Sequence record: MG676466.1
From: Pseudomonas phage TC6
Strand: one strand, 5' to 3'
DNA: 49,796 nucleotides
Shown here: in pieces, positions 4,394-49,796 of the stretch
How positions within the stretch are numbered: the stretch's first letter is position 1
How the letters are laid out: every line of letters starts with the position of its first letter
The notes under the pieces: generated by a model
Seen by the model: only the letters and a program-made list of their open reading frames with translations
Databases searched by the model: none
What the model was told of the DNA's origin: nothing
Position numbers and translations under genes: made by a program

Positions 4394-6148
4394 ATGTCAA
4401 CTAAAGTAGCTGAGCTTAATAGCTTGCTGGTACGTGATAGTTCTGCCCAATGGGTAGCCTATCTCTGGGATCGTTTTAATAATCAACGACGCCAGAAAAT
4501 TGAAGAGTGGAAAGAGTTGCGTAACTATGTTTTTGCAACAGATACTACTACGACTTCCAACCAAGGGTTGCCTTGGAAGAACTCTACCACCCTCCCAAAA
4601 CTTTGTCAGATTAGAGACAACCTTCACTCTAACTATTTCTCGTCCCTATTCCCTAACGACGACTGGCTTCGCTGGGTAGGTTATGGCAAGGGTGATAGCA
4701 CTAAAACTAAAGCCAAAGCCATCCAGGCTTACATGAGCAATAAGTGCAGAGAGAGTCATTTCCGCACTGAGGTTAGTAAGCTAATCTATGATTATATTGA
4801 TTACGGTAATGCGTTTGCCACTGTAAGTTTCGAAGCTAAGTACAAAGAGATGCCTGATGGCACTTTGGTGCCTGACTACATTGGCCCACGGCTTGTACGT
4901 ATTAGTCCACTGGACATTGTGTTTAACCCACTTGCAACCTCTATTTCTGACACCTTTAAAATTGTACGCTCTGTAAAGACCAAGGGAGAGCTTATGAGGC
5001 TCGCTCAAGATGAACCTGAGCAATCCTATTGGCTAGAGGCTTTGAAGCGTAGAGAAGAGATTTGCAGGCATCTAGGGGGTTATTCTGTAGAGGACTTCGA
5101 TAAGGCTGCTGGATTCGATGTAGATGGATTCGGTAACCTGTACGAATACTACATGAGTGACTGGGTAGAAATCCTGGAGTTCTATGGAGACTACCACGAC
5201 AAAGAAACTGGCGAACTTCAAACCAATAGAATTATCACTGTAGTAGATAGGTCTACTGAAGTTCGTAATGAGTCCATTCCGACTTGGTTTGGCTCTGCCC
5301 CAATTTACCATGTTGGTTGGAGATTCCGCCCAGACAATCTGTGGGCCATGGGACCTCTAGACAATCTAGTAGGTATGCAATATCGAATTGACCATCTTGA
5401 GAATGCCAAGGCTGATGCTGTCGATCTTATCATTCAACCTCCGCTGAAAATCATTGGTGAGGTGGAAGAGTTTGTATGGGGTCCTAGTGCGGAGATTCAT
5501 CTGGACCAAGGCGGTGATGTACAAGAGGTTGCCAAGAACGTTAACTATATCATCAATGCAGACAACCAAATTCAAATGCTAGAAGATCGTATGGAGCTGT
5601 ACGCTGGCGCTCCTCGTGAGGCTATGGGCATTCGTACTCCTGGTGAAAAGACTGCATTTGAAGTACAACAGCTTGGTAATGCTGCCGGTCGAATCTTCCA
5701 AGAGAAGGTCACTACGTTCGAAGTAGAACTGTTGGAGCCTGTGCTAAACGCTATGCTGGAAACCGCTACTCGTAACATGGATGGTAGTGATGTTATTCGA
5801 GTTATGGATACTGATCTTGGCGTTAAAGAGTTCATGTCTGTTACTCGTGAAGACATTACTGCTAACGGAAAGATTAGACCCATTGGCGCTAGACACTTCG
5901 GTAAGCAGGCACAAGACTTGCAAAACCTAGTAGGAATCTTCAATAGTCAAATTGGGCAAATGATTCTTCCTCACACTAGTGGTAAGGCGTTGGCTACTTT
6001 CGTAGATGATGTAACTGGATTGCAAGGTTACGAAATCTTTAGACCTAACGTGGCAGTAGCAGAACAAGCAGAGACTCAATCGCTTGTTGCACAAGCACAA
6101 GAAGACCTGCAACTTCAAGCTCAAATGCCTGCTGAGGGTGCTATCTAA
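4394..6148 (+). CDS. portal protein
   Basis: 584 aa ORF between terminase and scaffold/capsid, with the size and position of a portal. Acidic C-terminus. Confidence 0.7.
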   Translation: MSTKVAELNSLLVRDSSAQWVAYLWDRFNNQRRQKIEEWKELRNYVFATDTTTTSNQGLPWKNSTTLPKLCQIRDNLHSNYFSSLFPNDDWLRWVGYGKGDSTKTKAKAIQAYMSNKCRESHFRTEVSKLIYDYIDYGNAFATVSFEAKYKEMPDGTLVPDYIGPRLVRISPLDIVFNPLATSISDTFKIVRSVKTKGELMRLAQDEPEQSYWLEALKRREEICRHLGGYSVEDFDKAAGFDVDGFGNLYEYYMSDWVEILEFYGDYHDKETGELQTNRIITVVDRSTEVRNESIPTWFGSAPIYHVGWRFRPDNLWAMGPLDNLVGMQYRIDHLENAKADAVDLIIQPPLKIIGEVEEFVWGPSAEIHLDQGGDVQEVAKNVNYIINADNQIQMLEDRMELYAGAPREAMGIRTPGEKTAFEVQQLGNAAGRIFQEKVTTFEVELLEPVLNAMLETATRNMDGSDVIRVMDTDLGVKEFMSVTREDITANGKIRPIGARHFGKQAQDLQNLVGIFNSQIGQMILPHTSGKALATFVDDVTGLQGYEIFRPNVAVAEQAETQSLVAQAQEDLQLQAQMPAEGAI

Positions 6149-30640: not shown

Positions 30641-32486
30641 TTGAACATTCTAGTTCTCTGTTAAGATTTAAGAATTTATTTGTCTTATCCATAGCTCTAT
30701 GTAGCAACGCTGTACATTGCTCTCTAAATCCCTTCCTAATACATAGGACGACTTCATCATGGAATTGCGCAGTGAGTTGTGGCCGCTCCTCCCGGATGTG
30801 CCTAACCCATGTATCGAAACAGTAAACTCCCGTACCTTGGTTTAGTGTTGAGAACCTATCTTTTTCATGACGTAAGCTGTACCAGAATCCACTAACTGGA
30901 TTGAACAACCACTTCATTCCATTGCACACCTTAACTATCTGGTCTTCAGCAATACGTTTGACTGACCAGTTACGTTGCCAATATGCATCTACCAGTTTGT
31001 ACCCCTCATCCATGGTTACCCCAGCAGTGATGGCCACACGTGGACCACCAGCCCCATACACGCACGCATAGTTAACGCTCTTATACACCTTCCTAATAGC
31101 TTTAACTAGCCCCTCCTCTTCTTTCTTAAGGAAGCCTGCTTTATACAACTCTACTTCGTGAGAAGAAAGTGCCCCAGCAAACACCGCCAAGTCGAGGTGT
31201 GGGTCGAAGTCTGGTTTAATCATCTCCTTTACATACTCAGGGTCATAGGGCCACATGTAATGTTGCTTACATCTGTCCTCCAAGCTGCTCATATCACTAC
31301 CAACCAGCTCATAACCTTCAGGAGCAACCAGACAACCACGTATATCAGCGCCATAAGGCTTGTCAACACCCGGAAGGTTGACCACCACCTCATGCTTAAA
31401 TCGCAACGTGTTGGTGAGTCCTTGCACTTTGGCTTGGACATAACCTTCATCATCCACGTTGTTTAAGAACCCGTTTAGAACGGAGATACGGTGAGTTAGA
31501 ATCGAGAGTCCGTCAAGAATTTCTAGCTTTGGCTCTTTACCATAGAGCTTTTTAACGCTAGCACACAAGCCAGGACCAAGAGTTTTATCTTGCTGTACTT
31601 GTTCAATCTTCTTAACTTCCCCAGTTTCCTTGTTTCTTTTATATGCAAAAGTCTCTGGCACCCAACCTAGGCTGTACAACCAAGACTTAATTTGCTCGTG
31701 TGAGCCAGGATTAGGTTCCTTCCAATCCTTAATGTACTCAACTACTCCTTCGTAATCTTCGGGCAGCCCCTGCTCTTCCAACAACGCAACCCAAGCTTTC
31801 CCCTGTTCGCTTAAAGTGTTTGGCTTATTCTTTAGATACATCTTCTTAGGCTTTTCCTTACTTGCCATTACTGGCACATGAGGCATAGCCAATCTAAGCT
31901 CTTCTACTTTTTCTTCTTTTAACTTTTCTAGTTTCTTTAAAGTGGTCTTACAATGTACTACATCTAGCTTCCATCGACTACGCTCTTGTTCAGCAGCACA
32001 ATCCATTTTGAACATAATGTAGTCAATGAACTTCCAAACTTTATCTGGCTCACCATACAACTTGGAGAGTTGTTTCCATTGGCGTTCCCACAGTTTGGTA
32101 TTAATCTTTACGTCTTCTTCACATCGATGTATATATTCCTCTACGGCTAGGTTTTCCCAATCATCGACTTTCGGCTTAGGAACACCAAACTCTTCACCCC
32201 ATTCAGCTAGGCCATGCCTCTTCCTAGCTGGCTCCAAATACCAAGAGAGTGGTAGTGTATCAACAAGTTTACACTCTACTTTGATATTTAACAATCTCTC
32301 AATATTTGGAATGTCATACCTGTAAATATTGTGACCACCAATAATCTTAGCGTTTCTAAAGAACGACCTCATCTTATCGTAGTCAGTGGTTGAAAAGAGT
32401 TTACCATTCTTCATGACAGAAAGACAATGAATCTTAGTAGGCTTCAAGCCATCAGCTTCAATGTCAAAAATGTCAATCAATGCCAA
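30606..32486 (-). CDS. DNA polymerase, family A (T7-like, exo+pol)
   Basis: Exo I motif DIFDIEADGL, polymerase motif A region and motif C QFHDEVV. Confidence 0.85.
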   Translation of the reverse strand: MALIDIFDIEADGLKPTKIHCLSVMKNGKLFSTTDYDKMRSFFRNAKIIGGHNIYRYDIPNIERLLNIKVECKLVDTLPLSWYLEPARKRHGLAEWGEEFGVPKPKVDDWENLAVEEYIHRCEEDVKINTKLWERQWKQLSKLYGEPDKVWKFIDYIMFKMDCAAEQERSRWKLDVVHCKTTLKKLEKLKEEKVEELRLAMPHVPVMASKEKPKKMYLKNKPNTLSEQGKAWVALLEEQGLPEDYEGVVEYIKDWKEPNPGSHEQIKSWLYSLGWVPETFAYKRNKETGEVKKIEQVQQDKTLGPGLCASVKKLYGKEPKLEILDGLSILTHRISVLNGFLNNVDDEGYVQAKVQGLTNTLRFKHEVVVNLPGVDKPYGADIRGCLVAPEGYELVGSDMSSLEDRCKQHYMWPYDPEYVKEMIKPDFDPHLDLAVFAGALSSHEVELYKAGFLKKEEEGLVKAIRKVYKSVNYACVYGAGGPRVAITAGVTMDEGYKLVDAYWQRNWSVKRIAEDQIVKVCNGMKWLFNPVSGFWYSLRHEKDRFSTLNQGTGVYCFDTWVRHIREERPQLTAQFHDEVVLCIRKGFREQCTALLHRAMDKTNKFLNLNRELECSIEYGDSYSDIH

Positions 32487-32976
32487 CTTGCCCCTTCAAC
32501 TCTTCTCTAAAGTTGTACACCATACGGCTAACAAAAGCTGCGTCAGCATCAGTTACTTCTACAATTTCCCTAGGCTTATAGCCCAAGATAAAATACAGAT
32601 GGAGAACATCAGCAACGTTTGATGGACGCTCGGCGATAGCTCTGTCAATAAACTTTCGTAGACCACTTTCAGTTTGAGAGAGTACCACTCCATCTACTTC
32701 TTCCTCATCGAATTCTTCACACATACCATATCGGCGTTCATCCCTCTTAAAGTCTCGAAGGGCATTATTAAGAATGGAATTGAACCAAGCTCCCAACTCT
32801 TTTCGTTCTGGGTCATAAGAGTTCCAATACTTCAATGCTCTGGAGAAAGCTTCTTGAACAATGTCTTCTGCGTTCTCAGGAGTACCAGCACGGAACGACA
32901 CACGCTTTACCAATTCATTGTAGTTGTTCTTAAAGAACCTGCCCATAATCAGGTTACGAGCTTTCACATCAACCAT
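32473..32976 (-). CDS. ECF-like sigma-70 family sigma factor
   Basis: Region 2-like DIVQEAFSRALKYW...ELGAWFNSILNNALRDFKRDERR and region 4-like HTH VADVLHLYFILGYKPREIVEVTDADAAFVSRMVYNFREEL. Confidence 0.6.
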   Translation of the reverse strand: MVDVKARNLIMGRFFKNNYNELVKRVSFRAGTPENAEDIVQEAFSRALKYWNSYDPERKELGAWFNSILNNALRDFKRDERRYGMCEEFDEEEVDGVVLSQTESGLRKFIDRAIAERPSNVADVLHLYFILGYKPREIVEVTDADAAFVSRMVYNFREELKGQVGID

Positions 32977-46496: not shown

Positions 46497-46631
46497 TCCA
46501 ATTTAGGAGAAACGACTTTATTTTAAGTAGTATACTAACGTATAACTATTAGTATATATATACTAAGAGGGAGGAGTTGGGGTACGAAGTAAACCAACCA
46601 ACTACGACCCTTAGTAATAATATATAATATA
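46497..46631. promoter_or_regulatory. AT-rich region with 16-nt perfect palindrome tagtatatatatacta and agtata repeats
   Basis: About 75% AT intergenic region with iteron-like repeats. A candidate origin or promoter cluster. Confidence 0.4.
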
Positions 46632-47177
46632 TTAAGCAGCTTCCTCGACAACAGGCTCTTCAATGATTGCTTCGAAGTTACACAACTTCAATACGGCTTG
46701 GATAGTAGCATCGTTAACTTTGAAGTTAACTTTCTCTTGATCTTCCTGCGTAAGGCCAGCCACTTTCTCTTTCATGGCGTTATGATCTTTAATTACTTTT
46801 TGCAAGGCTGCCTCAAGATCAAACCCCTTGAAAGGAGATTTAACTTTGAGTGACCACCACATAGTGGCCTTAGCTTCTTCGAAGCGTTGTTCAATGTAAT
46901 CCTTGCCGGACCAGCCGATGAATCCATTGTCATCAGTGCTCAGGCCACCGTACAACTTGAACCATTCGACAAGGGCAGCACCATTAACAGTGTTACCCAA
47001 CCCATCGACGAGCTTCTGAGCGTAGGTCCAATCACCATGCTTGTGAGCGTGCATGATGGTTGCCACTGCCGCAATCTGTACGAGCACCCGTGCCTTTTGT
47101 ACAGACTTGATGGCGGTGGCTTGAATCTTCTCCAGTTCAGCAGCATCTTTAGCGGTGACGTATTTGATAGCTTTCAT
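46632..47177 (-). CDS. hypothetical protein
   Basis: 181 aa ORF with its RBS in the upstream GC-rich spacer. Confidence 0.5.
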   Translation of the reverse strand: MKAIKYVTAKDAAELEKIQATAIKSVQKARVLVQIAAVATIMHAHKHGDWTYAQKLVDGLGNTVNGAALVEWFKLYGGLSTDDNGFIGWSGKDYIEQRFEEAKATMWWSLKVKSPFKGFDLEAALQKVIKDHNAMKEKVAGLTQEDQEKVNFKVNDATIQAVLKLCNFEAIIEEPVVEEAA

Positions 47178-47187
47178 TTCACTACTC

Positions 47188-47442
47188 CTACAAACTCAAG
47201 GGTTTTACGGTTGAAGCGTAGAATACGGGCAGGGAGAGGCGCTGCGGTGTCACGTCAAACGTGACCGGCGCATTTTCGCAGGGCGAGAAAATGATTCGCG
47301 CCCAATGCAAACCGCGTCCGTATTTTTCGTAGGCGGCGTATGCGAGTTCGAACGTTTCGAATGAATCGCAGTAATCGCAATCTTCGAAAATGTCGTCGCC
47401 GTCATATTCGAATTTGCCAGCCTCTACGTGAAACTTGAGCAT
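47188..47442 (-). CDS. hypothetical acidic protein
   Basis: 84 aa ORF with Cys pairs (CDYCD) in a moderately GC-rich stretch. Confidence 0.35.
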   Translation of the reverse strand: MLKFHVEAGKFEYDGDDIFEDCDYCDSFETFELAYAAYEKYGRGLHWARIIFSPCENAPVTFDVTPQRLSLPVFYASTVKPLSL

Positions 47443-47452
47443 TGTTTGATCC

Positions 47453-47725
47453 TCAGTTGGTTTTTGCTTTGAGTGCTCGATTGATTTTGGTAGCTTTTAC
47501 GCCGCTACCCTTTGCCAGTCGCTTACCCTTTGGGTTCCAGAAGTCATTAAGGTTAGTACGACTGCCACGATATACAACATCGTTCATAGCTTTACGTGCC
47601 TTGCGTGCTTCAGGGGTGCGCTCAGCATTTAGTGCGTCAATCTTATCTTCACGCCGTGCAATCTTAGCTTTGTTGCTCATTCTAGTGTCAGGTTGACGCT
47701 TGTGATTCTTAGCTTGGAAGGCCAT
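47453..47725 (-). CDS. small basic protein
   Basis: Start refined to MAFQAKNHKRQPD with a perfect RBS (AGGAGGAACTAAT). Lys/Arg-rich. Confidence 0.45.
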   Translation of the reverse strand: MAFQAKNHKRQPDTRMSNKAKIARREDKIDALNAERTPEARKARKAMNDVVYRGSRTNLNDFWNPKGKRLAKGSGVKATKINRALKAKTN

Positions 47726-48307
47726 ATTAGTTCCTCCTAGGTTTAGGTTGAACGTTCTGCTCTGCACTATACGCTTTATCAGTGCGCTGCATTGGTAATA
47801 CAGAACGTTCACCTAAGTCTAAAAAGACTTTGCCCTTCGCGGGACTTCGTAGGGGTGCACCCTGCACACTGCTACGGCTTACACTTCTTAGCGTTCGCGT
47901 TTGTCAGACGCTACTAACTCTCCCCGTGCTATGGCTGCAAGCTACAGCCCGTCTCTAACTATCCTAGAGCCCGATACGGATGCCTGTATAGTAGGCATTA
48001 CTGGCGTGTTCTACAAACCTTCCACGCTTTGTACCGTCCGCTTTCATGCGCTCACCTTGAGGCCGAAGCCAGCTAGCGCTTTACTTACTTAGGCCGCCCC
48101 CTGTCGGGACGTACTGTTTGAGCTTTGTAAGCCTCCAGGCCCGTTTGCCTTTGTTGGGAGCCATATTACCACTTTCTGTCGCTTTGTCAAGCCCTAAAAT
48201 TTTCTTAGGGAATCTCAAGCCGGCCAGCATCGCATTTCCCGTTATCGACGCCTGAGTGGTTAGGCTATGTAGACCAGTAGACATTAGTAGACACTCTTTC
48301 GAGTGCC

Positions 48308-48457
48308 TTACCAAACCTTACCTTTGTTAGTGTCACATGCAATGATGGCTGCCAGTCTGAAAGCAAAAGGCTTGTCCATCTTGCTGATACGTTCCACTTT
48401 TTGAGCTACAGTTTCCTGGCTCTTAAGGGCAAGGTAGGCTTGACGTTCATTACGCAT
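48308..48457 (-). CDS. small hypothetical protein (49 aa, not in ORF track)
   Basis: ORF MRNERQAYLALKSQETVAQKVERISKMDKPFAFRLAAIIACDTNKGKVW with RBS GGGAGAA 5 nt upstream. Flanked by a 21-nt inverted repeat. Coordinates are approximate. Confidence 0.3.
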   Translation of the reverse strand: MRNERQAYLALKSQETVAQKVERISKMDKPFAFRLAAIIACDTNKGKVW

Positions 48458-48552
48458 AGTAGTTCTCCCGTATAAGATGAGGGTCTACTAATGCCTACTG
48501 ATCCACATTGTTAAAGAACATATGTCTAATGTGCTGTAGTGTAGCGTATTTT

Positions 48553-48774
48553 TCAATACGCGACATTCATGCGATAGACTATTGTAGCAGCTACATGGAT
48601 ACTAAGCATGCCTCTTAGAGAACTGTCCACTTGTTGAAAGTGTTCAATCTCTCTTTTAGCTGCCGGACTAGCCTTCAAGATTTCGTTAGCTAGCATACGC
48701 ATACCATTGCTGCAAGCTACCCCAGCCAGGATGATTGCCGGATTGATAGCATAGTCGTTCGGATTGATTCGCAT
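48553..48774 (-). CDS. small hypothetical protein
   Basis: 73 aa ORF with RBS AGGAGG 7 nt upstream. Flanked by inverted 12-nt and direct 13-nt repeats. Confidence 0.4.
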   Translation of the reverse strand: MRINPNDYAINPAIILAGVACSNGMRMLANEILKASPAAKREIEHFQQVDSSLRGMLSIHVAATIVYRMNVAY

Positions 48775-48886
48775 GGTAGTGCCTCCTATGTGGATACACT
48801 ACAGCACACTAAACATATTGTTAAAGAACGGTGGCCTACTTCCCTCGACTCGTAAGGCCTGTCAAGCATTGAACCCTTTCCTTACA

Positions 48887-49093
48887 TCACGCATGCATCC
48901 GCACGGTGATGTAGCCGTTGCTTGCAACTACATGCTCCCAGCAATTGAAGAAGACGGACTGTCCGAACTTCTTCATTGCCGCCTGTCGAACCTTCACCTC
49001 AACGTCCAGAGGTTGTTCACCTGCTTCAGGCAGGGCAAGCCATCGCAGGCTCTTGCCGTCGCTTAGGTGGGAATCGATGTTGAATTGAGCCAT
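48887..49093 (-). CDS. small hypothetical protein
   Basis: Start refined to MAQFNIDSH with RBS AAGGAGA. Confidence 0.4.
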   Translation of the reverse strand: MAQFNIDSHLSDGKSLRWLALPEAGEQPLDVEVKVRQAAMKKFGQSVFFNCWEHVVASNGYITVRMHA

Positions 49094-49796
49094 TTCAGTC
49101 TCCTTACCAGGGTTTACCGGCGTTGATGTATGCACTTACTTGTAACGTCACTCCCCCGTTAGATGCCTGCCGGCCTTACACTAACTGGTTCATGCCCTAG
49201 AACCTATCGTGTCATTCCCCATAATGTCCGTAGACTAGAGAACAAGATTGTCGGCTCCGTTGAAGGTTAGTTACCTTCTGAGAACGCACGTTAGTCTATG
49301 CGCTCTTAGAAGTCAACTGTTATTTGTACACCAGGCACATCACACAATCAGACAGAACCACTACATCTACCTTGTAACCTTCACCTTCTGCGCAGTCTTT
49401 AAGCGCTTGCGCTTCGGCTTTGTTTGCAACAATTGAGATGGTCATTTTTGGTTGCCTTTGTTTGTGTCTACGGCTGCGAACTCTACAGACCTGTATCGAA
49501 GTCTGCTAATTGATTGTAACTATCAATGTGGTGTCGGTGAATAGGACATACCTATAACCCTTACGTGTATAGATGAACGTGTACACGCGTAGCATGATGC
49601 ATGCCAAGTATAGGTGTGCTGTTAGCACGTTTTATAAGCCTATACGCGACGGTAGTCGCACATACACATAAGCACATGTGCTGGCTTGCCAGCGTATAAG
49701 CCTGGACCCCTAGTGCCACCAGGCTTAGAGGCCTATTTGCATGTGAAGAAAAATGTGGTGGACATAGTGGAGGTACATTACACCCCACCTCCTCAT

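Follow-up and report, generated by a model that had tools for sequence, protein, structure and literature searches.

The stretch of DNA analyzed here, which we call the window, comprises 49,796 nucleotides (nt) of Pseudomonas phage TC6 (record MG676466.1). We focused on two small genes near its right end, which encode proteins of 73 and 49 amino acids (aa) and are each enclosed by a pair of complementary arms and preceded by a copy of the same 13-nt repeat. Over positions 47000 to 49796, the window is 96% identical to Pseudomonas phages PA11 and PSA11 and shows lower identity to the other members of Paundecimvirus (Zobellviridae); it is a PA11-like Pseudomonas podophage. The minus strand is the sense strand for the small genes of the right end, and the sequences of the cassettes are quoted on that strand.

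Two BoxA-helix units in tandem

Each of the two units presents the same order of elements, namely, a BoxA sequence, a leader strand, ∼20 nt with a Shine-Dalgarno sequence, an open reading frame (ORF), a local hairpin that overlaps or follows the stop codon, and a trailer strand complementary to the leader. The units stand in tandem, with the second BoxA directly following the trailer of unit A (Table 1). The arms around the 49-aa gene were already part of the original prediction for this locus: gaccagtagacattagtagac lies at 48272 to 48292 and its partner at 48483 to 48503, one base away from the 48484 to 48504 given originally. A repeat search extended these arms to 30 nt with 87% complementarity (48267 to 48296 and 48479 to 48508), within which Watson-Crick and G·U pairs form a contiguous core of 26 bp. 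The inverted repeat predicted around the 73-aa gene (48531 to 48544 and 48796 to 48807) is present as described and extends to arms of 24 nt with 92% complementarity (48520 to 48543 and 48795 to 48818), giving a helix A of 22 Watson-Crick pairs and 2 G·U pairs. The arms of the two genes are 182 and 251 nt apart and surround the whole ORF in both cases. When the 601-nt sense transcript was folded, both long-range stems appeared in the minimum free energy as well as the centroid structure (z = −9.1), and the duplex energies of the cognate arms reached z-scores of −7 to −9 against shuffled sequences.

The 13-mer attgttaaagaac occurs in exactly two copies in the 49.8-kb window. On the sense strand it reads GTTCTTTAACAAT, and its 3′ end is located 49 nt before the ATG at 48457 and 42 nt before the ATG at 48774. 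The original prediction had treated it as an anonymous direct repeat; the repeat exists, but its identity was missed, since its first 11 nt fit perfectly to GYTCTTTAANA, the gammaproteobacterial BoxA consensus (Baniulyte 2017), and this sequence directly abuts the 5′ arm. BoxA is the RNA site for NusB and NusE (S10); it is both required and sufficient for the rRNA antitermination complex (rrnTAC) to assemble. Judged by sequence, both 13-mers are rrn-type BoxA elements and candidate loading sites for NusB/NusE. The 11-nt consensus has three matches in the window, compared with 0.42 expected, and two of the three are located on the sense strand in the intergenic early region, where they are untranslated and have σ70-like promoters upstream. 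The third match (GTTCTTTAAGA, 32928 to 32938, minus strand) lies 38 nt inside the coding sequence of a 167-aa protein (32473 to 32976) and has no adjacent helix, so that it is probably due to chance. Taken together, the z-scores of the arms and of the folded transcript and the excess of BoxA matches indicate that the inverted repeats and the 13-mer are more than chance occurrences. Given that the 13-mer is a BoxA abutting the 5′ arm, the reading of the locus moves from a generic stability element to an antitermination and processing module that resembles an rRNA operon.

An Rfam scan of positions 46500 to 49796 at an E value of ≤1 returned no family, and none of the four small proteins of the region matched a Pfam model, with PHROG hits limited to families without an assigned function. 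According to the promoter and terminator scan, the local hairpins of the cassettes contain no U-tract and are therefore not intrinsic terminators.

Table 1. Features of the two units and their surroundings, in the order of transcription
Feature	Position in window	Strand	Remarks
TTGACA hexamer	48860-48865	minus	directly upstream of the GGCCT...AGGCC hairpin
Hairpin GGCCT...AGGCC	48833-48859	minus	3 nt upstream of BoxA-1; position like that of the boxB-like hairpin of rrn leaders
BoxA-1	48819-48829 (13-mer 48817-48829)	minus	GTTCTTTAACA; exact consensus match; intergenic
Helix A, leader (5′) strand	48795-48818	minus	ATATGTTTAGTGTGCTGTAGTGTA; 0 nt after BoxA-1; ends 20 nt before ATG
73-aa ORF in helix A	48553-48774	minus	Shine-Dalgarno GGAGG 48782-48786; PHROG 33860, no assigned function
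Local hairpin GCGTATT-GAAA-AATACGC	48544-48561	minus	spans the 73-aa stop codon; helix A trailer follows directly
Helix A, trailer (3′) strand	48520-48543	minus	TACACTACAGCACATTAGACATAT; BoxA-2 follows directly
BoxA-2	48509-48519 (13-mer 48507-48519)	minus	GTTCTTTAACA; exact consensus match
Helix B, leader (5′) strand	48483-48508	minus	ATGTGGATCAGTAGGCATTAGTAGAC; 0 nt after BoxA-2; 26-bp core with 3 G·U
49-aa ORF in helix B	48308-48457	minus	Shine-Dalgarno GGGAG near 48465-48469; PHROG 17580, no assigned function
Local hairpin GGCACTC-GAAA-GAGTGTC	48290-48307	minus	after the stop codon of the 49-aa ORF; last 3 nt overlap helix B trailer
Helix B, trailer (3′) strand	48267-48292	minus	GTCTACTAATGTCTACTGGTCTACAT
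Next early σ70 promoter, TTGACA-16-TAATAT	48163-48190	minus	downstream of the module; 10/12 matches, TG extension

Conservation of the pairing and distribution of the cassettes

The central idea of the original prediction, that complementary arms within one minus-strand transcript pair with each other and so enclose each small cistron in a stem, is supported by the type of mismatches, by RNAalifold, and by the pairing in other phages. All mismatches inside the two stems of the window are G·U on the sense strand and C·A on the opposite strand. For pair counting, a MAFFT alignment of all cassettes was unusable, since arms of different classes fell out of register; we replaced it by a BoxA-anchored register table of 18 cassettes with at least eight unrelated arm sequences (LKA1, T5, My1, and metagenomes) and by RNAalifold on the alignable subset. 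In columns +2 to +21 after BoxA, 97.5% of the cells of this table are paired, with three to six canonical pair types per column, while permuting the 3′ arms among the 18 cassettes leaves 54% ± 5 paired (maximum, 74%). The non-Watson-Crick cells comprise 31 G·U versus 2 A·C, which points to selection acting on the sense RNA. A comparison of sense and antisense duplex energies did not uniformly favor the sense strand, because the duplex folding also caught local hairpins, which makes the count of G·U versus A·C the cleaner strand test. Cognate duplexes reach −45 to −53 kcal/mol in nearly all cassettes, compared with −12 to −39 kcal/mol for arms combined across classes.

RNAalifold recovered the helix (for helix B, columns 12 to 34 paired with 248 to 270), with three pairs changed on both sides and several on one side. 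No pair of the helix is broken except for one cell in the outermost pair, whereas the pairs predicted inside the ORF often break. The cores of the window, with 24 and 26 bp, exceed the range of 17 to 20 bp for a leader-trailer helix and show covariation. The geometry is likewise fixed: the gap between BoxA and the 5′ arm is 0 to 1 nt in 17 of 22 cassettes, at most 5 nt in four, and 12 nt in one (L028), the end of the 5′ arm lies 15 to 25 nt before the ATG, and the end of BoxA lies 40 to 52 nt before it in nearly all cassettes.

Within Paundecimvirus, the 49-aa gene is always accompanied by BoxA, both arms, and the local hairpin, and all changes keep the pairing. BoxA-2 is kept upstream of this gene in 11 of 11 sequenced relatives, in GTTC or GCTC variants, with FBPa8 and DMTU_1 carrying GCTCTTTAACA. 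The stem of the hairpin after the 49-aa stop codon is found in every sequence, with a loop of GAAA or UUUU depending on the phage and one G·U pair changed to A-U, and the hairpin upstream of BoxA-1 reads GGCAT...ATGCC in HHBS10_2, one pair being changed on both sides. The 73-aa unit, in turn, is present or absent as an exact 310-bp block whose borders are the two 13-mers, and it is missing from FBPa8, Ty, HHBS10_2, PP21, and DMTU_1. In K4, O4, and IME180, the arms of helix A surround an unrelated 71-aa ORF, and in PPAT they surround a 68-aa ORF, with a double change from A-U to G-C in the helix; K4, O4, and PPAT also share a different local hairpin, GCCCCT-TGAAAT-AGGGGC, where the window has the hairpin before the helix A trailer. 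Since the same arms enclose three different ORFs in the window and PA11, in K4 and O4, and in PPAT, the helix is independent of the enclosed gene. The repeated modules serve as recombination joints for gene gain, loss, and replacement, and this shuffling is better seen as a consequence of the repetition of regulatory modules.

Beyond this genus, the stem is kept while the arm sequences change completely, in homologous and nonhomologous cassettes alike. ORF1 of LKA1 (Autographiviridae) is a 58% identical homologue of the 49-aa protein. It is preceded by BoxA (GCTCTTTAACA), a 1-nt gap, and a 21-nt arm of entirely different sequence, the complement of which lies past the stop codon, after a local hairpin, with G·U as the sole mismatch. 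We retrieved 12 further homologues of the 49-aa protein from metagenomes, 11 of which form, with LKA1 and the window gene, a close set of 13. BoxA and an enclosing helix of 17 to 29 bp are found in 12 of these 13, and the arms fall into several unrelated sequence classes; one helix encloses two ORFs (L022), and another encloses the ORF plus 135 nt (L026). The metagenomic relatives of LKA1 show a TTGACA-16/17-TAnnnT promoter ∼30 nt upstream of BoxA. When IMG/VR was searched with the protein, the sole addition was a partial, distantly related sequence that lacks BoxA (L017).

Scanning IMG/VR with two anchored 14-mers only, we obtained 233 BoxA-like matches, most of them chance matches or without a helix. 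A helix of at least 21 bp next to BoxA was present in 3 of the 233 (LKA1, L125, and L130), versus 0 of 231 controls. L125 is the contig of a GC-rich phage (8190 to 8580, plus strand), with a promoter 16 nt before BoxA, a 30-bp helix around ∼290 nt with stops in all frames and no clear ORF, and a TTGACA promoter directly after the trailer; its cargo looks noncoding, and the locus had no match in the phage collection. L130 is the T5-like Pectobacterium phage My1, where the cassette is located in the pre-early terminal repeat and, as in the window, a second BoxA directly follows the trailer. The left terminal repeat of My1 contains four BoxA consensus sites on the sense strand (3394, 5804, 6108, and 6587) and none on the opposite strand. 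At the second of these sites, a 25-bp helix encloses a gene, and at the third, a 13-bp helix extends over two ORFs. In T5 itself (NC_005859), the pre-early region at 4681 to 5010 (minus strand) contains a hairpin followed by BoxA (GCTCTTTAAAA, 4988 to 4978) and a 27-bp helix (4977 to 4951 with 4707 to 4681) that encloses T5.008, with both mismatches being G·U; a TTGACA-17-TAAGAT promoter coincides in part with the trailer. T5.009 (4915 to 5022), an annotated gene that covers parts of BoxA and leader strand, may not be a true gene. The cassette is thus found in PA11-like Zobellviridae, LKA1-like Autographiviridae, and T5-like Demerecviridae, including T5, and BoxA and stems are unannotated in every record examined. 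The early region of LUZ19 contains no BoxA within one mismatch.

Several further features lie close to the units. In the window, the promoter downstream of the module is followed by ∼430 nt without a convincing ORF before an ATG at 47735 (47735 to 48190, minus strand), which may represent a long leader or a noncoding RNA. The annotated ORF056 of PA11 (77 aa, TTG start; equivalent to 48081 to 48314) spans this promoter and the trailer of helix B and is probably not a gene. Just upstream of BoxA-1 lies a 68-aa gene (48879 to 49140, minus strand; 82 aa from an upstream GTG start) that is ∼94% identical at the DNA level in BUCT566, TC7, PA8, and Epa33, phages that share nothing else of the 2.8-kb query, and that is absent from PA11 and PSA11, which suggests a recent horizontal acquisition. 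A noncoding element of ∼105 nt (49158 to 49262, minus strand) has a σ70-type early promoter directly upstream (TTGACT 49311 to 49316, TAACGT 49288 to 49293). It is nearly identical in 11 of 11 relatives despite differing flanks, has no Rfam match, and shows a compensatory change from U-A to C-G in its terminal hairpin in K4 and O4; we consider it a candidate early small RNA or structured leader.

Comparison with rRNA operons and other BoxA systems

We compared the cassettes with an rrn operon from P. paraeruginosa, which is closely related to the host; the BoxA of its leader reads GCTCTTTAACA, and that of its spacer reads GTTCTTTAAAA. The order of elements in the Pseudomonas rrn leader is P2 promoter, hairpin, BoxA, 4 nt, and a 21-nt strand (GAATCAAGCAATTCGTGTGGG), the exact complement of which follows just after the 16S rRNA and completes a 21-bp leader-trailer helix. 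The phage cassettes share with this layout the BoxA sequence, the hairpin just upstream of BoxA (window, T5, and Pseudomonas rrn), a helix of at least 21 bp whose leader strand, in nearly all cassettes, begins 0 to 5 nt after BoxA and whose trailer strand comes shortly after the enclosed RNA, and a second BoxA after the first unit. The helices are also comparable in length, given that E. coli requires more than 17 bp and Pseudomonas has 21 bp. In LKA1, positions 936 to 952 are identical to positions 255 to 271 of the Pseudomonas rrn leader over 17 consecutive nt (GCTCTTTAACAAGTCGA) from BoxA onward, and two of its metagenomic relatives (L019 and L021) share the −10 context of the early promoter, GCTGTAGAATGCG, with rrn P2, the −10 of LKA1 itself being TAAGAT. 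At the sequence level, this suggests that the LKA1-type promoter-leader unit either imitates the rrn leader of the host or originated from it by capture.

The differences concern mainly what is enclosed. Instead of a 1.5-kb rRNA, the phage cassettes surround ORFs of 49 to 73 aa with a Shine-Dalgarno sequence (190 to 270 nt) or a short noncoding RNA; they keep no recognizable boxC (TGTGTGGG), they have a local hairpin between stop codon and trailer, and they reside in lytic phage genomes, where Nus binding and cleavage are predicted. In our reading, the phage module works like the rrn module and is not an rrn operon, as it encloses no rRNA.

Among phages, the closest known parallel to a BoxA of this kind is T7, also a lytic phage, which has a perfect, N-independent BoxA of the rrn type (GCTCTTTAACA, 813 to 823) downstream of the early promoters for the host polymerase and upstream of the first early gene, 0.3. 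The passage of PMC3709561 that cites Savalia 2010 describes this early boxA as a functional N-independent antitermination element. Beside it, we found no long-range helix, the best one having 9 bp. The RNase III site R0.3 of T7 is reportedly located after BoxA. T7 differs from the window in having a single BoxA rather than one per small gene and in RNase III sites that are local hairpins between genes. A T7-type RNase III site, which is a local hairpin of ∼50 to 60 nt, was rejected for the window, where the arms are far apart and enclose a whole ORF.

In suhB and lambda N, BoxA is located upstream of the Shine-Dalgarno sequence of the gene, as in the cassettes, and a loop between Nus/BoxA and the polymerase keeps the gene that follows from being fully translated. 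RNase III modulates this effect in the case of lambda N, whose leader also resembles the cassettes in having structured, RNase III-sensitive RNA between BoxA and the ORF. Lambda, in contrast, needs the N protein and a boxB downstream of BoxA, and suhB has no enclosing helix. A lambda-type nut site was rejected for the window, since a helix strand directly follows BoxA and the sole nearby hairpin is upstream, as in rrn. No N-like protein is evident among the small early proteins from Pfam and PHROG, in a search that was not exhaustive for such proteins. The BoxA upstream of CRISPR arrays, which shields a poorly translated or untranslated transcript from Rho (Stringer et al. 2020), is similar in its use outside rRNA and differs in the absence of a leader-trailer helix and in processing by Cas6 instead of RNase III. 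With respect to gene exchange, the small early ORFs between repeated regulatory sequences, their clean presence or absence, and their replacement resemble the PeSL cassettes of T4 and the morons of other phages, which are modular promoter-gene-stem-loop units that are gained and lost. The window unit differs from these in consisting of BoxA and a covarying RNA helix rather than a promoter and a local stem-loop, and in having its function assigned at the RNA level.

A possible antitermination and excision module

In rRNA operons, which are transcribed by an antitermination complex of NusA/B/E/G, SuhB, and S4, NusB/E on BoxA holds the leader close to the RNA exit channel of the polymerase. The growing rRNA forms a loop, and the trailer pairs with the leader while emerging. 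The leader-trailer helix contains the RNase III site, and when rrnTAC is stable, it brings together both ends of the rRNA and raises cotranscriptional cleavage by RNase III. Published rrn work supports each of these steps, and we therefore propose a corresponding model for the phage units. Host RNA polymerase would start at an early σ70 promoter and transcribe BoxA, on which NusB/E, NusA, NusG, and SuhB would assemble, rendering the polymerase fast and Rho resistant. BoxA and the adjoining leader strand would remain attached near the RNA exit as the ORF is extruded in a loop. The trailer would pair upon its emergence, so that helix formation would be ensured despite 190 to 270 nt of intervening translatable RNA. 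RNase III would then cut the duplex of at least 21 bp, freeing a small mRNA with paired ends from the BoxA-polymerase loop for translation, and the next BoxA, right after the trailer, would reload the complex. Given the translational repression exerted by a Nus/BoxA loop, severing the ORF from BoxA would allow it to be translated. Processing of the helices by RNase III is plausible, and the length and regularity of the duplexes are consistent with it. Overall, we judge it somewhat probable that each unit is an rrn-like module for Nus-dependent antitermination, cotranscriptional looping, and excision of a small mRNA by RNase III; the phage would probably borrow the rrn machinery of its host to make and release its first messages.

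A number of observations weigh against this model. The module is missing from one close homologue (L023) and from the distant Marinobacter-type homologues (L013 and L027), so that the gene can evidently be expressed without it. An exact BoxA is not always kept, as K4, O4, and IME180 carry GCTCATTAACA in cassette A, with one mismatch to the consensus. In the T5 and LKA1 type, the 3′ arm overlaps the next σ70 promoter, and these bases are therefore also constrained at the DNA level. Promoter firing just upstream of the 5′ arm would generate some transcripts without BoxA or leader strand. Finally, NusB/E binding, Rho resistance, and RNase III cleavage in these phages are steps that we infer by analogy with rrn, as are antitermination and looping.

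BoxA could instead act as a repressor, as in suhB and the lambda N leader, with the Nus complex blocking translation of the small ORF and promoting Rho termination while the helix, uncut by RNase III, only stabilizes or insulates the RNA. The distance of 40 to 52 nt between BoxA and ATG falls into the range in which BoxA-mediated translational repression was reported, which persisted when the Shine-Dalgarno sequence was as far as 100 nt from BoxA and was ascribed to a loop between BoxA and the polymerase (Baniulyte et al.), and BoxA has been published to promote as well as to prevent Rho termination. What repression does not account for is a helix of at least 21 bp directly after BoxA in nearly every case, the second BoxA after the trailer in the window and My1, and the noncoding cargo of L125; the layout is, moreover, that of the rrn 16S leader, where BoxA antiterminates. 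We therefore regard a purely repressive role as unlikely, with the reservation that repressor and antiterminator roles of BoxA are not mutually exclusive. An explanation without any Nus function would be that the helix protects or insulates mRNA ends in a generic way, like the fold-back of hok-like type I toxin mRNAs, and that the BoxA-like sequence has no such role or is merely a −35 element. Paired ends would, on general grounds, protect from RNase E and 3′ exonucleases, TTAACA-N17-TAGTGT can be read in cassette A, and the other early promoters of the phage resemble TTGACA-N17-TAnnnT. However, the full 11-nt BoxA is kept, including the GYTCT that is superfluous for a −35 hexamer, no acceptable −10 exists in cassette B, LKA1, or T5, and the promoter scan does not call the 13-mer and arm. 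The 49-aa protein is neither hydrophobic nor toxin-like, no antisense promoter was seen, and the combination of BoxA and adjacent helix recurs for Pseudomonas, Pectobacterium, and E. coli hosts, always with a BoxA of the host type. All this renders a generic protective role distinctly improbable.

Least probable, and in our view hardly credible, is that the repeats act on DNA, whether as operators, as ends of a mobile or invertible cassette, or as recombination sites for gene shuffling. The 73-aa unit is indeed a clean polymorphism between the 13-mers, and different ORFs are found between the same arms. Between phage groups, however, the complementarity of the arms is conserved and their sequence is not, the predominance of G·U over A·C on the sense strand would not be expected from DNA binding or recombination, the arms keep a constant position with respect to BoxA, Shine-Dalgarno sequence, and stop codon and not with respect to the borders of the indel, and no recombinase or transposase is encoded nearby. 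The original prediction had offered operators for an early regulator as its alternative, which is not supported, given that the arms covary and have strand-specific mismatches, unlike sequence-conserved protein-binding sites. Repeats serving as σ70 promoters or operators were rejected as well, on the basis of the negative promoter scan and of arm sequences that vary while pairing is kept, and so was a miniature inverted-repeat transposable element (MITE)-like or invertible element, since the borders of the indel are the BoxA direct repeats, not inverted repeats, and the arms covary.

Returning to the rrn-like model, we tentatively extend it, with less confidence than for the single units, to an unrecognized “pseudo-rRNA cassette” shared by gammaproteobacterial lytic phages of at least three unrelated families. 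In such a cassette, BoxA would recruit the rrn complex, a small early mRNA or noncoding RNA would be looped out, the leader would be brought to the trailer, and RNase III would excise the product cotranscriptionally. In the literature on BoxA and antitermination in phages, for which full-text coverage was incomplete, we found neither a BoxA fused to a covarying ORF-enclosing helix nor such units in T5, LKA1, or PA11-like phages, so that the joining of BoxA to a gene-enclosing stem appears to be unreported; already known are the BoxA antiterminator of lytic T7 and BoxA outside rRNA in suhB and CRISPR arrays. For annotation, some annotated ORFs that overlap BoxA or stems, such as PA11 ORF056 and T5.009, may be nongenes.

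If the model is true, the strategy of the rRNA operon, with a BoxA-nucleated Nus complex, looping, and excision by RNase III, would extend beyond rRNA to single early mRNAs. The cassettes would provide natural substrates of ∼300 nt for testing rrnTAC as an RNA chaperone or looping machine, as well as a compact, portable part for gene insulation and processing in synthetic operons. A large supply of BoxA RNAs might also divert NusB, NusE, and SuhB from host rRNA synthesis, and NusB, SuhB, and RNase III would be host factors relevant to Pseudomonas therapy phages and to T5. The model would further account for the escape from Rho of early phage transcripts that are untranslated over long distances, and it would mean that phages deploy the rrn strategy of their host in the first minutes of infection.

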